In this document: positions 20,458 to 27,749 of the stretch, in pieces
Position numbering within the stretch: the first letter of the stretch is position 1
Layout: each line of letters begins with the position of its first letter
IMG/VR virus record: IMGVR_UViG_2869970738_000009
Length of the DNA stretch: 33,980 nt
Direction: 5' to 3' (one strand)
From: a virus
Lineage: Duplodnaviria > Heunggongvirae > Uroviricota > Caudoviricetes
Position numbers and translations under genes: made by a program
Notes under the pieces: generated by a model
What the model was told of the DNA's origin: nothing
Database searches by the model: none
Seen by the model: the letters and a program-made list of their open reading frames with translations, nothing else

Positions 20458-21275
20458 AACTGGAAGATTTACCGAAATACTACTCCCCAAAATCCCCTAG
20501 CCTGACCGATGCATCGGCCTCAACGTCAAAAGATGCGCTGAGTATCACTGATGTGATGGCCGCGCAGGGCATGACACAGAATCGGGCTGAGATGGGGTTT
20601 TCTGCGTTCCTGGGGAAAATGGGCATCAGTATGAATGACAGGGCGCGGGCAACAGAATTACTGGCAGATTATGCACTCAGTCGGTGCGATCGTGTGGCGG
20701 CGTTGAGAAAACTTCCGGCAGAAATAAAACCGGTAGTGATGCGCATTATGGCTTCGTATGCGTTTGAAGATTATGCCCGTAGCGCGGCGAGCAAAAAACA
20801 GTGCCCCTGCTGTCACGGAAAAAAATTTATTGAAAGCGAGGTTTTTACAAACAAGATCCAGTATCCGGATGGTAAGCCACCAGTGTGGGCAAAGTGCACA
20901 AAAGGCGTGTATCCGTCTTACTGGGAAGAATGGAAAAAAGTCAGGGAGGTGGTAAAAGTTGCCTGTCCGGAGTGTGGCGGAAAGGGTGAGGTTTCCACCG
21001 CCTGTAAGGATTGCCGTGGGCGTGGTGTCGCCATTCATCGTGAAGAGTCGGTAAAACGTGGTATGCCTGTTATCAGAGACTGCCAGCGTTGTGGTGGTCG
21101 TGGCTGTGAAAGACTACCATCAACGGAGGCATTTAATGCCATATGCAAAGTGACGAGTGCTATCACGCTTGATACGTGGAAAAAATCAGTGAAACGCTTT
21201 TACGATACGTTGGTGGTTCGGTTTGACATTGAAGAGGCATGGGCGGAGCGGCAGTTAAAGAGGGTAACGCGATAG
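20454..21275 (+). CDS. late-gene antiterminator Q-like protein (QuuQ type) with four CxxC motifs
   Basis: Position immediately upstream of the PR'/tR'-like promoter and terminator; N-terminus MKLEDLPKYYSPKSPSLTDASAS resembles Q-like proteins as recalled. Confidence 0.55.
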   Translation: MKLEDLPKYYSPKSPSLTDASASTSKDALSITDVMAAQGMTQNRAEMGFSAFLGKMGISMNDRARATELLADYALSRCDRVAALRKLPAEIKPVVMRIMASYAFEDYARSAASKKQCPCCHGKKFIESEVFTNKIQYPDGKPPVWAKCTKGVYPSYWEEWKKVREVVKVACPECGGKGEVSTACKDCRGRGVAIHREESVKRGMPVIRDCQRCGGRGCERLPSTEAFNAICKVTSAITLDTWKKSVKRFYDTLVVRFDIEEAWAERQLKRVTR

Positions 21276-21280
21276 TGTTG

Positions 21281-21308
21281 TTGATTTTTCCCGAATCTGT
21301 GGTAAATT
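21281..21308 (+). promoter_or_regulatory. putative late promoter PR' (-35 TTGATT, -10 TAAATT)
   Basis: Sigma70-like hexamers with 16-bp spacer directly after the Q stop codon. Confidence 0.4.
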
Positions 21309-21357
21309 TGCTCTAATGATGGGCGTTTTATGCCTGACGTTAGAAGATTTTTTACAC

Positions 21358-21379
21358 CCCGCCGCCTGGCGGGTTTTTT
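21358..21379 (+). terminator. rho-independent terminator (tR'-like)
   Basis: Stem CCCGCC/GGCGGG with loop GCCT followed by TTTTTT, about 55 nt downstream of the putative PR'. Confidence 0.6.
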
Positions 21380-22948: not shown

Positions 22949-23021
22949 GGCCCTTTAGCTCAGTGGTGAGAGCGAGCGACTCATAATCGCCAGGTCGCTG
23001 GTTCAAATCCAGCAAGGGCCA
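22949..23021 (+). tRNA. ileZ: tRNA with CAU anticodon, ileX/ileZ-like (tRNA-Ile2; Met not excluded)
   Basis: Cloverleaf GGCCCTT-TA-GCTC...GAGC; anticodon loop CTCATAA; T arm GCTGG-TTCAAAT-CCAGC; acceptor closes AAGGGCC; CCA not encoded. Confidence 0.75.
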
Positions 23022-23031
23022 CTATCACATA

Positions 23032-23105
23032 CCGCCATTAGCTCATCAGGAAAGAGCGCCAGCCTTCGAAGCTGGTTGCGCGGAGTTCGGGTCCCCGAAG
23101 GCGGT
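23032..23105 (+). tRNA. tRNA-Arg-like (anticodon UCG), noncanonical T loop; may be degenerate
   Basis: Anticodon arm CCAGC-CTTCGAA-GCTGG is clean; T loop TTCGGGT and one mismatch each in the T and acceptor stems. Confidence 0.45.
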
Positions 23106-23121
23106 TCATTATCTGTATCCT

Positions 23122-23198
23122 GCGTTGTTAGCTCAGCCGGACAGAGCAATTGCCTTCTAAGCAATCGGTCACTGGTTCGAATACAGTAGAACGCGCCA
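23122..23198 (+). tRNA. tRNA-Arg (anticodon UCU), CCA encoded
   Basis: GCGTTGT-TA-GCTC...; anticodon loop CTTCTAA; T loop TTCGAAT; acceptor and T stems have one mismatch each. Confidence 0.65.
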
Positions 23199-23212
23199 CA
23201 CTTATTTTCCCT

Positions 23213-23237
23213 GGCTCGCTTTTGCGGGCTTTTTTTT
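23213..23237 (+). terminator. rho-independent terminator after the tRNA cluster
   Basis: Stem GGCTCGC/GCGGGCT (two G-U pairs), loop TTTT, then T7 run. Confidence 0.55.
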
Positions 23238-23365
23238 AAATGTCTCACAATTCAGGCGGTTGACTGTTGTCTGGTTTGCGGGGAGTTTGTTAAAAGAAAC
23301 TGGCATGGTGAATCCCCCTGTGCGGAGGGGCAATCAGCGAGTAGGTATATGGGATAATCGCAGAT

Positions 23366-23463
23366 TCAGGTGCTGGTACTGAATTCACCGGGAGGCACCC
23401 GGCACCATGCAATGGCACATAGCGCCACTCTCCAGCCCCTCTCCGGAGGGGCTGTTTATATTG
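23366..23463 (+). ncRNA. putative small structured RNA (about 100 nt) ending in a strong intrinsic terminator
   Basis: Extended -10 TGGGATAAT at 23350-23358; hairpins at 23389-23403 and 23433-23454 (9-bp GC stem) followed by a U-rich tract. Confidence 0.2.
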
Positions 23464-23488
23464 ATTTTGTCAGATGTGAGTAAACTCC

Positions 23489-23824
23489 TTATGGACTTTG
23501 TTGTTTTAGCCCATAAGGACATATTTGCAGAGTGCAACGGTTATTAAAGCATTCATTCAATACGTTATCTGTATTTGTAGGGCATTCCTGGCTGTTTTTG
23601 ATTAAATTCCAGAATGTTTTATTGAATGGTACTACGTTGTAAATGGTTACAGGTAGCACTTTGTTATTGAGCATGATGCCTGTGTGAGTCAGTGTAAATA
23701 TACTTTCAGGAGGTAAGAAAGCATCCGATTGATACCAGATTATTAATTTTATTTTACTCCATATGACTGAAAAAGATATTCCGCATGATGGCTGGATAAC
23801 TGTATCAATCACAATCCACTTCAT
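23489..23824 (-). CDS. hypothetical 111-aa protein in an AT-rich cargo segment at the position where Stx phages carry stxAB
   Basis: ORF of 111 codons from ATG 23822-23824 with AAGGA Shine-Dalgarno; open frame of this length in AT-rich DNA is unlikely by chance; no recognised motif. Confidence 0.4.
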
Positions 23825-24069
23825 TTGGTTTCCTTGTTTATGCATTGCTGGTGATGTTCTGAAAAGTATAAATGATATTTTTGAATGTAAACCATAGAGC
23901 AGAATTATTTTTCTGATGTTGTTTATTGTTTATTTAAATGCAGGGTGGTTTATATCTCGTCTTGTAGTTTATCCATGCATATCTGCTTGATGATGAGGTT
24001 TTTATTTAAGGTATGGTTTTGTGTTTTTTCTGTATTACATGTCAGGTATTTTAAAGAATCATTTTTCAG

Positions 24070-25950
24070 ATGGTGGAAAGAACCATGGCATTTAAACACT
24101 ATGATGTTGTCAGGGCGGCGTCGCCGTCAGATCTTGCGGAAAAGCTGACACATAAACTGAAAGAGGGCTGGCAGCCGTTTGGTAGTCCGGTGGCCATAAC
24201 CCCTTATACTCTGATGCAGGCGATTGCAGCAGAAGGTGCAGTAATCAGCGCCACCAGCAACCCGGAGTATTACTTTGTTGTGGTTCTGGCAGGGCAGTCA
24301 AACGGCATGTCGTATGGTGAAGGCCTTCCGCTGCCGGGGACATATGACCGTCCGGACCCGCGTATTAAGCAACTGGCGCGTCGCAGTACGGTGACACCGG
24401 GCGGTGCAGCATGCAAATATAACGACATCATTCCGGCGGACCATTGTCTGCATGATGTGCAGGACATGAGCCGTCTTAACCATCCGAAAGCGGACCTGTC
24501 AAAGGGGCAGTACGGAACCGTGGGGCAGGGGCTGCATATCGCCAAAAAACTGCTGCCGTTTATACCGGCGAATGCGGGCATTCTGCTGGTTCCGTGCTGT
24601 CGTGGTGGTTCAGCGTTCACCACCGGAGCTGATGGCACATACAGTGACGCGAGTGGTGCCTCGGAGAATTCAACCCGCTGGGGTGTGGACAAGCCGCTGT
24701 ATAAGGACCTTATCGGTCGAACAAAAGCGGCACTGGAGAAGAACCCGAAAAATGTGCTGTTTGCCGTGGTGTGGATGCAGGGGGAATTTGATTTTGGCGG
24801 TACGCCGGCAAATCATGCCGCACAGTTTGGTGCGCTGGTTGATAAATTCCGTGCAGACCTGGCGGATATGGCAGGCCAGTGCGTCGGTGGCTCTGCTGGC
24901 GGTGTTCCCTGGATATGCGGGGACACGACGTATTTCTGGAAGCAGAAGAACGAATCCACGTACCAGACGGTGTACGGCAGCTATAAAAATAAAACGGAAA
25001 AGAATATCCATTTCGTACCGTTCATGACCGATGAGAACGGGGTGAATGTGCCGACGAACAAACCGGAAGAAGACCCGGACATTCCGGGTATCGGTTATTA
25101 CGGTTCGAAATGGCGTGACAGCTCAGCCACCTGGACGTCACAGGACAGGGCGAGCCATTTCAGTTCATGGGCTCGCCGTGGGATTATTTCCGACCGTCTG
25201 GCAACGGCGATTCTGAGCTGCGCGGGTAAGTCTTCTGCGTTTGTTAATGGTACTGCCGGGGTGGTTGTTCCAGACAGGCCGGTTACCACCTCAGAGTCTG
25301 TAATTTTTTACGATGCCAAAAAAGCTACAGACAATCAGCTGAAACCTTATGGCTGGGACGGTATGTATGGCAGACGCACACTGGTTGATGACAGCGGCAA
25401 TAAAGCTCTGCGAATTGAGAAAAATAACAGCGCGAAATCCTGGTCAATGTACTGTGATATTGCTGCAGACAAGGCAAAACTTTTACTGGAAAAAGGCGGG
25501 GAAATTGCTGTCCGGTTTAAAATCCCCGAAAACGTCAATCTTGAGACAACCAGAAACAAGTATGCCTTTGGTTTGTACTGGCGAATAGCGGAATGGCCGG
25601 GTGAGGGTGGTGAAGGCCATCTGAGTTCTTTCTTTGTCCAGACAGATAAAGCCAGTATTAATATTGCATACCATCATACAGTTAATCAACAAAAAGAACT
25701 TGGCACGTTTGGCGCATTCGACCATGACTGGCATACGCTTGCATTTAAATTTAAGGGCAGTAACAGCATTAATGTTACTCCGGTGCTTGATGGTGTGGAT
25801 GGACAGGCGTTTGACCTGGTGAAATGGGCCAATACTGCTAATGGACTCAACAGGTTTGTCATTACGGATATTACAGGTAGTGCAGAAACCTACCCTGTAC
25901 TTATTGATACGGTGGAAGTTAAAGCAAACAAAGCTGGAGCAGCCGCATAA
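24070..25950 (+). CDS. nanS: NanS-type sialate O-acetylesterase (phage nanS-p-like; DUF1737 N-domain plus SASA/SGNH esterase domain)
   Basis: GQSN esterase motif (VVLAGQSNGMSYGEG); N-terminus MAFKHYDVVRAASPSDLAEKL typical of DUF1737; start is either ATG 24070 or ATG 24085. Confidence 0.75.
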   Translation: MVERTMAFKHYDVVRAASPSDLAEKLTHKLKEGWQPFGSPVAITPYTLMQAIAAEGAVISATSNPEYYFVVVLAGQSNGMSYGEGLPLPGTYDRPDPRIKQLARRSTVTPGGAACKYNDIIPADHCLHDVQDMSRLNHPKADLSKGQYGTVGQGLHIAKKLLPFIPANAGILLVPCCRGGSAFTTGADGTYSDASGASENSTRWGVDKPLYKDLIGRTKAALEKNPKNVLFAVVWMQGEFDFGGTPANHAAQFGALVDKFRADLADMAGQCVGGSAGGVPWICGDTTYFWKQKNESTYQTVYGSYKNKTEKNIHFVPFMTDENGVNVPTNKPEEDPDIPGIGYYGSKWRDSSATWTSQDRASHFSSWARRGIISDRLATAILSCAGKSSAFVNGTAGVVVPDRPVTTSESVIFYDAKKATDNQLKPYGWDGMYGRRTLVDDSGNKALRIEKNNSAKSWSMYCDIAADKAKLLLEKGGEIAVRFKIPENVNLETTRNKYAFGLYWRIAEWPGEGGEGHLSSFFVQTDKASINIAYHHTVNQQKELGTFGAFDHDWHTLAFKFKGSNSINVTPVLDGVDGQAFDLVKWANTANGLNRFVITDITGSAETYPVLIDTVEVKANKAGAAA

Positions 25951-26088
25951 TTGCTAAAAAAAGCCGCCAGCGGCAGGAATGGAAGCTGGCGGAGGTAATC
26001 CCAATGGAGAATGTAAAGAAAAGATGCTTTCGTACATTGGTTTTTAAATGAAAACAATTCTCATTGTCAACCATAACGGTAAGAAATT

Positions 26089-26524: not shown

Positions 26525-26600
26525 GCATGCGCAAGGGACCATCGGTGTGTGCCGGTGGTCTTTATATTGTTGTGAGCTTCCGGATTGCGGGAGACGGGGT

Positions 26601-26816
26601 ATGTACCAGATGGAAAAAATCACAACAGGTGTGTCATACACCACGTCAGCGGTGGGAACGGGCTACTGGTTCCTGCAGTTGCTGGACAGGGTTTCCCCGT
26701 CTCAGTGGGCGGCAATAGGCGTGCTGGGGAGTCTGTTGTTTGGGCTGCTGACATATCTGACTAACCTGTATTTCAAAATCAGAGAGGACCGTCGTAAGGC
26801 GGCGCGGGGAGAGTAA
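26601..26816 (+). CDS. S: class II holin, phage 21 S-like (pinholin), dual-start motif MYQM
   Basis: [68 protein letters not shown] matches S21-type holins as recalled. Confidence 0.75.
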
Positions 26817-27215: not shown

Positions 27216-27749
27216 ATGAACACCAAAATCAAATACGGCCTGTCGGCTGCCGTTCTGGCGCTGATTGCCGCAGGTGCGCCTGCGCCTGAAATCCTCGACC
27301 AGTTTCTGGATGAAAAGGAAGGTAACCACACCACGGCATACCGTGATGGCGCGGGTATCTGGACCATCTGCCGCGGTGCCATCCTGGTGGATAGTAAACC
27401 TGTCGTCCCGGGCATGAAGTTGTCGAAGGAAAAATGCGACCAGGTCAACGCCATTGAGCGTGATAAGGCGCTGGCATGGGTGGAGCGCAATATTAAAGTG
27501 CCGCTGACCGAACCCCAGAAAGCGGGTATCGCGTCATTTTGTCCCTATAACATTGGCCCCGGTAAGTGTTTCCCGTCGACGTTTTACAGACGGATTAATG
27601 CTGGTGACCGCAGGGGAGCATGCGAAGCGATTCGCTGGTGGATTAAGGACGGTGGCAGAGACTGCCGTATCCGCTCAAATAATTGCTACGGTCAGGTATC
27701 CCGGCGAGACCAGGAAAGTGCGCTGGCGTGCTGGGACATCGACAGATAA
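27216..27749 (+). CDS. R: SAR endolysin (T4-type lysozyme fold with N-terminal signal-anchor-release domain)
   Basis: Gly/Ala-rich weakly hydrophobic N-terminus followed by the catalytic E-D-T triad region (EKEGNHTTAYRDGAGIWTICRG). Confidence 0.8.
   Translation: MNTKIKYGLSAAVLALIAAGAPAPEILDQFLDEKEGNHTTAYRDGAGIWTICRGAILVDSKPVVPGMKLSKEKCDQVNAIERDKALAWVERNIKVPLTEPQKAGIASFCPYNIGPGKCFPSTFYRRINAGDRRGACEAIRWWIKDGGRDCRIRSNNCYGQVSRRDQESALACWDIDR

Follow-up and report, generated by a model that had tools for sequence, protein, structure and literature searches.

A region of DNA originally flagged as a possible small RNA, between a tRNA terminator and an AT-rich open reading frame (ORF), is part of a real and already described gene, that of the small RNA (sRNA) STnc100. 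The Rfam model of this family (RF02076) matches positions 23274–23463 of the + strand of the window, by which we mean the whole 33,980-nt stretch that was analysed. The match covers the full model (positions 1–206 of 206) with 126.9 bits and E = 1e-27, against a gathering score of 47 bits, and an Rfam search was one of the checks that the original prediction had proposed. In print, family members also carry the names EcOnc05, EcOnc06, EcOnc27, and sRNA103, and STnc100 is related, and has been tied, to PasD1 and PasD2 of EPEC. We consider it probable that the RNA is a copy of the lambdoid-prophage STnc100 that works as a free-standing, Hfq-associated, trans-acting sRNA. The original prediction had picked out a real feature and had correctly called it an RNA; its boundaries were misplaced, and the promoter and antisense role that it proposed are unsupported.

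Identity and prophage setting

Window positions 23199–23454 are the sequence of prophage Sp4 of E. coli O157:H7 Sakai with two differences only, a one-T indel in the terminator upstream of the RNA and an A rather than a G at 23362. The Sp4 locus is listed as EcOnc05 (Tree et al. 2014 Table S2), with an Hfq CRAC peak at 1179806–1179914 (+) in all five experiments and a band of ∼222 nt on northern blots (Tree et al. 2014). The EcOnc05 probe of that study is the reverse complement of window positions 23332–66, except at position 23362. The same DNA in Sakai therefore gives an Hfq-bound, northern-detected RNA, so that the transcript exists and binds Hfq in a strain that carries it. By analogy with this near-identical copy, the RNA of the window would likewise be expressed and associated with Hfq. 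Lack of a transcript and loss of the region in relatives had been named in advance as findings that would count against an RNA; the Sakai transcript is published and relatives keep the RNA.

The window is the late-regulatory region of a lambdoid, Stx-phage-like prophage, with the following features around the RNA:

+ strand, before the Q homologue: DUF968 gene, RusA
20454–21275, + strand: Q homologue (Pfam PF03589), 31% identical to lambda Q from end to end
21281–21308, + strand: late promoter pR' (TTGATT at 21281–86, 16 bp, TGgTAAATT at 21300–08), followed by TAATGATGGG
21358–21379, + strand: tR', a hairpin and T-run
+ strand, between the Q region and the tRNAs: small ORF and DNA methylase
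22949–23198, + strand: tRNA-Met(CAT), tRNA-Arg, and tRNA-Arg
23213–23230: terminator after the tRNAs, from a terminator scan
23489–23845, − strand: IraM homologue (the AT-rich ORF), convergent with the RNA (NCBIfam NF007393, 161.7 bits against a cut-off of 121)
24070–25950, + strand: nanS-p type sialate esterase
26547–26816, + strand: putative holin ORF, without a family match
27216–27749, + strand: lysozyme

The RNA thus occupies the location expected of STnc100, namely the stretch of a lambdoid prophage that runs from the late promoter to the lysis genes. Besides the full-length model match, the near-identical sequence, and the same type of terminator, it shares with EcOnc05 its prophage position, after the tRNA/stx moron site and before nanS-p and the lysis genes. 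The two loci differ in the convergent neighbour, which is an iraM homologue here and an anti-sRNA (AsxR or EcOnc08) in Sakai; the AsxR and AgvB anti-sRNA families (RF02703 and RF02702) have no match in the window at E values up to 1. IraM is an anti-adaptor that stabilises RpoS, and its homologue sits in the slot of the anti-sRNA of the Sakai prophages.

Several neighbouring features merit mention in their own right. Relative to lambda Q, the Q homologue carries an insertion of ∼66 aa with DnaJ-like CxxCxGxG zinc-finger repeats. ARAGORN reads the tRNA at 22949–23022 as Met(CAT), and the identical Sakai gene is annotated as ileZ (tRNA-Ile, anticodon cat), which is presumably lysidine-modified. 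Further upstream, at 14012–14197, Rfam has adjacent matches for isrK (62.3 bits) and C4 antisense RNA (75.1 bits); the pair is a control module of the P1/P7-type immunity or Gifsy-1-like antirepressor kind. An Esr41-like weak match (20.7 bits, E = 0.2) lies on the − strand at 25956–26030, between nanS-p and the holin ORF, an interval that in EPEC is the site of PasA-type sRNAs.

STnc100 is widespread, with copies in many genera of the Enterobacterales. By megablast, the window's version occurs in 2860 of 5426 complete E. coli genomes, at up to 13 places per genome, and EHEC and Salmonella carry several copies of the gene. Tandem arrays of three to five cores, mostly ∼243–253 nt apart, occur in three IMG/VR contigs (L059 459–981, L074 1812–2334, and L117 4465–5452), the spacing being exactly 253 nt in L059 and L074. 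We also considered the K-12 RNA IpeX (DLP12) as the same RNA. No ipeX feature is annotated at the locus, and the candidate was dropped on the origin of IpeX, which we take to be the 3′ end of nmpC, on the opposite strand. In strain EDL933, 11 STnc100 copies are transcribed, one of them confirmed by northern. The copy of Stx2 phages, called EcOnc27 or sRNA103, is found ∼75 nt downstream of stx2B and converges with AsxR (VT2-Sakai).

Ends of the RNA

Comparison of family members places the ends of the RNA as follows, together with the parts of the fold discussed in the next section:

23267–23296, + strand: predicted sigma-70 promoter of the sRNA (−35 TTGTCT at 23267–72, 18-bp spacer, extended −10 TGtTAAAAG at 23288–96)
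23303–23410, + strand: structured core of 108 nt, with P1, P2, P4, P5, and a pseudoknot
23303–10 with 23403–10, + strand: P1
23313–18 with 23324–30, + strand: P2, with loop UGUGC at 23319–23 and a bulged A23326
23333–23339, + strand: 5′ strand of the pseudoknot, AUCAGCG, directly after P2 and pairing with 23371–77
23340–23361, + strand: variable insert between this pseudoknot strand and P4, holding TGGGATAAT at 23350–58
23362–69 with 23379–86, + strand: P4
23371–23377, + strand: 3′ strand of the pseudoknot, UGCUGGU, in the P4 loop
23388–92 with 23398–402, + strand: P5, CCGGG-AGGCA-CCCGG, with loop AGGCA
23411–23432, + strand: variable single-stranded tail, with a small hairpin in the minimum free energy (MFE) fold
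23433–23463, + strand: intrinsic terminator (9-bp stem at 23433–54 and an interrupted U-tract), found by a terminator scan and coinciding with the end of the Rfam model

The RNA probably starts at ∼23303, at the foot of helix P1, as judged from 133 distinct relatives. Of 119 promoter-bearing relatives, 64 have a promoter of the form TTGACx-16/18-TAnnnT that ends 4–7 nt ahead of P1 (reverse-complement control, 8 of 142), and TTTGTTAAAA is the best-conserved upstream motif among the E. coli-type copies. The promoter predicted for the window at 23267–23296 is of a weak sigma-70 type. PasD2 (741157–741328, 172 nt), whose ends come from RNA-seq, starts at the G of P1, exactly the G of GCAUGGUGAAUCC, and has TTGACT-17-TTAAAA upstream. 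The first ∼29 positions of the Rfam model probably cover promoter DNA rather than transcript.

Published northern sizes of the Sakai copies are ∼222 nt for EcOnc05, ∼235/247 nt for EcOnc27, and ∼177 nt for EcOnc06 (Tree et al. 2014). The first two exceed the distance from P1 to the terminator by 55–65 nt, and for this reason we treat the 5′ end as probable rather than settled; EcOnc06 is nearer to the P1-to-terminator length of the other copies, and the 172 nt of PasD2 fit a start at P1. A structured 5′ leader at 23247–23302 was considered and rejected, as the hairpin of the Sp5 copy is not conserved in the window.

The 3′ end is marked by the 9-bp GC-rich hairpin and U tract that the original prediction had noticed. 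The hairpin, at 23433–23454, has seven G–C pairs among its nine and is followed by TTTATATTGA. Its U-tract is interrupted (GUUUAUAUUG), which counts against the explanation that we favour. By a crude scan for a hairpin plus T-run, 82 of the 119 promoter-bearing relatives have a terminator no more than 110 nt from P1; the interrupted T-run of the window was not flagged by the same scan.

The proposed length of ∼100 nt does not hold up, since the Rfam match spans 23274–23463 and the structured core begins at 23303; the flagged feature was a truncated one. Its start had been set by TGGGATAAT (23350–58), read as an extended −10. The motif is present, but it lies inside the variable insert of the RNA, is found in only nine of the 133 variants, and has no −35 element. 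Near-consensus extended −10 motifs (TGNTATAAT, one mismatch allowed) number 18 in the window against 21.8 expected, a count at chance level, so that TGGGATAAT carries no weight by itself.

The structured core

Folding and covariation analysis across homologous loci, also proposed as a check, revealed a conserved pseudoknotted core. An exact-pattern scan of one genome per species gave 33 loci in Escherichia, Citrobacter, Enterobacter, Klebsiella, Leclercia, Trabulsiella, Superficieibacter, Phytobacter, Atlantibacter, Franconibacter, Erwinia, Rosenbergiella, and other genera, and a scan of IMG/VR for the core gave at least 120 contigs with a match. The species scan and the IMG/VR matches listed yielded 133 distinct cores, which share the 108-nt plan given above.

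The MFE fold of 23303–23463 contains P1, P2, P4, P5, and the terminator (−66.8 kcal/mol, z = −2.7). All consensus helices of RF02076 form in the MFE fold, namely the closing helix, CCCCC/GGGG, GGGUUCAG/CUGAACUC, CCGGG-AGGCA-CCCGG, and the terminator, and these helices are backed by covariation in 64 relatives. The two hairpins that had been seen between the supposed promoter and the terminator are both there, at 23362–23386, which covaries, and at 23388–23402, which is nearly invariant. In a MAFFT alignment of 64 diverse members (<85% identical), 83.7% of cells are paired, a value reached by none of 500 shuffles and compared with 42–48% in slid controls. P1, P2, and P4 show many double changes in this alignment and P5 is nearly invariant. 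Across the family, P2 has a pentaloop U-N-W-G-C and usually one bulged base, and the insert after the first pseudoknot strand varies from 0 to ∼55 nt.

The pseudoknot joins the segment that follows P2 to the loop of P4. Register drift blurs the count in the MAFFT alignment, where 51% of pseudoknot cells are paired, and we therefore counted from anchored positions. Counted in this way, 81% of 123 distinct cores can form at least six contiguous pairs, against 10% with shuffled loops, and the duplexes comprise 67 different sequences (e.g., CCAGUC/GACUGG, AAGCCA/UGGCUU, CAGCUA/UAGCUG, and AAGGUUG/CAACCUU). The structure line of RF02076 in cmscan shows no pseudoknot, and a 2026 preprint on PasD and STnc100 leaves it unmentioned.

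While the helices covary, ∼45 nucleotides of the loops and junctions (GGUGAAU, the P2 pentaloop, and CACCGGGAGGCACCCGGCACC) hardly change across the range from Escherichia to Erwinia. Near-invariant loops are atypical of a base-pairing sRNA and hint at another, structure-dependent function.

At the allele level, A23362 replaces the G of Sakai Sp4 and other close copies, turning the first pair of P4 from G–C into an A·C mismatch and weakening it. The 3′ strand of P2 (GAGGGGC, 23325–31) is perfectly complementary to the 5′ strand of the terminator (GCCCCUC, 23435–41).

Mode of action

Trans-acting base pairing is the most likely mode of action of this copy, to judge from the literature on identical or related copies. 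A unit of ∼160 nt, placed in the ‘moron’ zone that separates the late promoter from the lysis genes, would be transcribed in lysogens from its own weak sigma-70 promoter, starting at ∼23303 and ending at the terminator at 23433–23463. The 5′ two-thirds would fold into the conserved pseudoknotted core, which may be a scaffold or a partner-binding domain, and the 3′ third, a variable tail and a terminator hairpin, would be a module of the kind bound by Hfq. The tail (23411–32), as a putative seed, would supply target specificity, and the RNA would act on targets as an Hfq-associated base-pairing RNA.

Related copies are consistent with this scheme. EcOnc27/sRNA103 is Hfq-bound, and its over-expression raises fimZ and espA transcripts. 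PasD1 and PasD2 are RIL-seq hubs with many partners and Hfq-dependent stability; their seed, UGUGAG, is in the 3′ tail, and both the seed and the chimera coordinates fall at the position of the window's 23411–23432. The PasD RNAs of EPEC E2348/69 share with the window's RNA the P1, P2, pseudoknot, and P4 architecture, a TTAAAA-type −10, a start at the G of P1, a place upstream of a sialate esterase gene, and dependence on Hfq. They differ in that their P2 has a tetraloop, their P5 is degraded, and their tail is not the same; UGUGAG is absent from the tail of the window's RNA.

Among the alternatives, the one that best survives holds that the core is primarily structure-dependent, either as a cis-acting leader that acts on elongation or termination in the manner of nut or put sites, or as a binding site for a conserved protein or ligand; we judge it unlikely. 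If the core acted in cis, the terminated ‘sRNA’ of lysogens would be an un-antiterminated by-product, as 6S and StxS are for pR'. The contrast between near-invariant loops and junctions and the covarying helices and pseudoknot argues for a role of this sort, as do promoter-less relatives that lie in early-operon leaders and score 39–43 bits (E. coli and Shigella representatives), below the 47 bits of RF02076. These copies form a second set of relatives, with a P2 such as GCGGCUCAGCGCACGC, of which only one of 23 reaches the promoter-score cut-off. The element of Shigella phage SfII (L161 3074–3195) lies downstream of cI, in the leader of an operon whose last genes are xis and int; a promoter was looked for in this leader and not found. 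A hairpin and U-run follow (3217–3265), and the one annotated ORF of this stretch overlaps the element. At four other loci (L122, L131, L051, and L108), a TTGACA promoter flanked by operator-like repeats precedes the element by ∼130 nt or more. Lambda itself retains a decayed core remnant in its late leader (L158, J02459, ∼44,857–44,941), downstream of tR'. A few genera have the core immediately ahead of small lipoprotein ORFs, and no terminator separates the two. Finally, the order of promoter, element, terminator, and same-strand late genes in promoter-bearing copies (here with the convergent iraM in between) follows the logic of pR'-qut-tR'.

Two further observations concern these relatives. 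The lambda remnant reads GUUGUGCUG AAU UAAGCG ... CAGCACAAC, and a GCACAAC before it could pair alternatively with the same strand. A promoter-less core relative in an early-operon leader at L040 8041–8229, below the Rfam threshold, is likewise followed by a hairpin and U-run.

Other evidence speaks against a primarily cis-acting or factor-binding core. RNAs of discrete size accumulate, which means that the element's own terminator works in lysogens, and a constitutive self-antiterminating unit upstream of the holin would be lethal. No cognate factor for the core has been identified. PasD has a degraded P5 and is yet an active RIL-seq hub. A riboswitch-like switch between P2 and the terminator was considered and rejected: the complementarity that would allow the alternative pairing is present in the window, but in only 21 of 143 members. 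The leader distribution of the promoter-less relatives recalls nut and put sites, but the putL and putR RNAs of HK022 and the putL-like RNA of HK639 have no sequence similarity to the core, and none of its motifs was found at these three features. The likeness to the HK022 put RNAs is one of position and concerns the promoter-less relatives alone, each being a structured RNA in a phage-operon leader upstream of terminators; the put RNAs consist of two stem-loops, and the core is a pseudoknotted structure of five helices with neither sequence nor architecture in common with them. HK639 carries an ordinary promoter-bearing STnc100 copy between Q and the holin. A primary cis-acting or partner-binding role of the core accordingly keeps a small share of our confidence. 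We are rather doubtful of the broader proposal that it defines an unrecognised class of phage leader RNA, acting on the elongation complex or binding a conserved host or phage factor, with the Hfq-bound sRNA as its terminated by-product.

The original prediction had also suggested an antisense regulator of the AT-rich ORF, an RNA of ∼100 nt starting near 23365 from the extended −10 TGGGATAAT. This is improbable. The motif does match five of six positions of the −10 hexamer, has the upstream TG, and is kept in the close subfamily. As read from the sequence, the iraM transcript lacks a good terminator of its own before that of the sRNA, so the 3′ ends could overlap, and opposite-strand Hfq peaks lie just beyond EcOnc05 in Sakai (Tree et al. 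2014). However, motifs of this type are as frequent as expected by chance, no −35 element accompanies this one, and 124 of the 133 variants lack it. A start near 23365 would cut the RNA inside P4 and lose the covarying P1, P2, and pseudoknot. The RNA end at ∼23463 and the iraM stop codon (23489–91) are 26 nt apart in convergent orientation, with no overlap of the coding sequence, and close relatives keep the RNA while exchanging the neighbouring gene for other cargo, either the stx-associated AsxR or another anti-sRNA-like unit.

That the region encodes a small protein, in the ORF at 23407–23547 or another short frame, is very improbable. The ORF exists, and one EDL933 copy with the same UAUGGGAUA motif has a raised ribosome-footprint ratio. 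It has 46 codons rather than the 50 first given, and it is not the only frame: other ORFs run at 23260–23382 (+), 23290–23418 (−), and 23385–23537 (−). Its ATG at 23407 sits in the 3′ strand of P1, and just 36 of the 133 cores have it; the peptides are 1 to ∼40 aa long, show frameshifts, and share only the stretch ‘SPSPEGL’, which is the translated terminator hairpin. The short frames have no Pfam match. With the full-length STnc100 match and the Hfq-bound, northern-detected Sakai copy, these unconserved peptides bear out the choice of an RNA over a protein.

We give virtually no credence to the idea that the RNA is a prematurely terminated leader of pR', of the lambda 6S/StxS class: it does lie between Q and the lysis genes, occurs once per prophage, and is abundant in lysogens, but a lambda-like pR'/tR' directly follows the Q homologue (21281–21379), ∼2 kb upstream of the RNA, Stx2 phages have STnc100 downstream of stx2B, after the toxin genes, and in another strain the antiterminator ahead of a nearly identical STnc100 belongs to a different family (DUF1133), so that this identity is ruled out by position. 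Like STnc100, 6S and StxS are short prophage RNAs of lysogens from the Q-to-lysis interval, and StxS binds Hfq; unlike it, they start at pR' next to Q and carry qut and pause signals, and they have no sequence similarity to STnc100. The window's own pR' and tR' predict a separate terminated leader RNA of ∼65 nt of the 6S/StxS kind, and CTCTAATGATGGG after pR' resembles the lambda pause region. In HK639, the pR'-tR' interval (L160 20282–20354) gives a near-threshold isrJ match (34.6 bits against 37), which hints that IsrJ, an sRNA of Salmonella, may be a terminated leader of a late promoter.

As a gene call, this STnc100 copy adds nothing new: STnc100 is among the most often annotated sRNAs, and this allele had already been detected in O157 Sakai. 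Its ends have nevertheless been misplaced by automated and by-eye annotation alike, with the Rfam model taking in promoter DNA and the original prediction beginning inside the RNA. STnc100 copies flank stx2 and carry variants associated with HUS. The covarying pseudoknot, near-invariant loops, and promoter-less leader relatives suggest that the family does more than base-pair, a proposition that can be tested by mutation.
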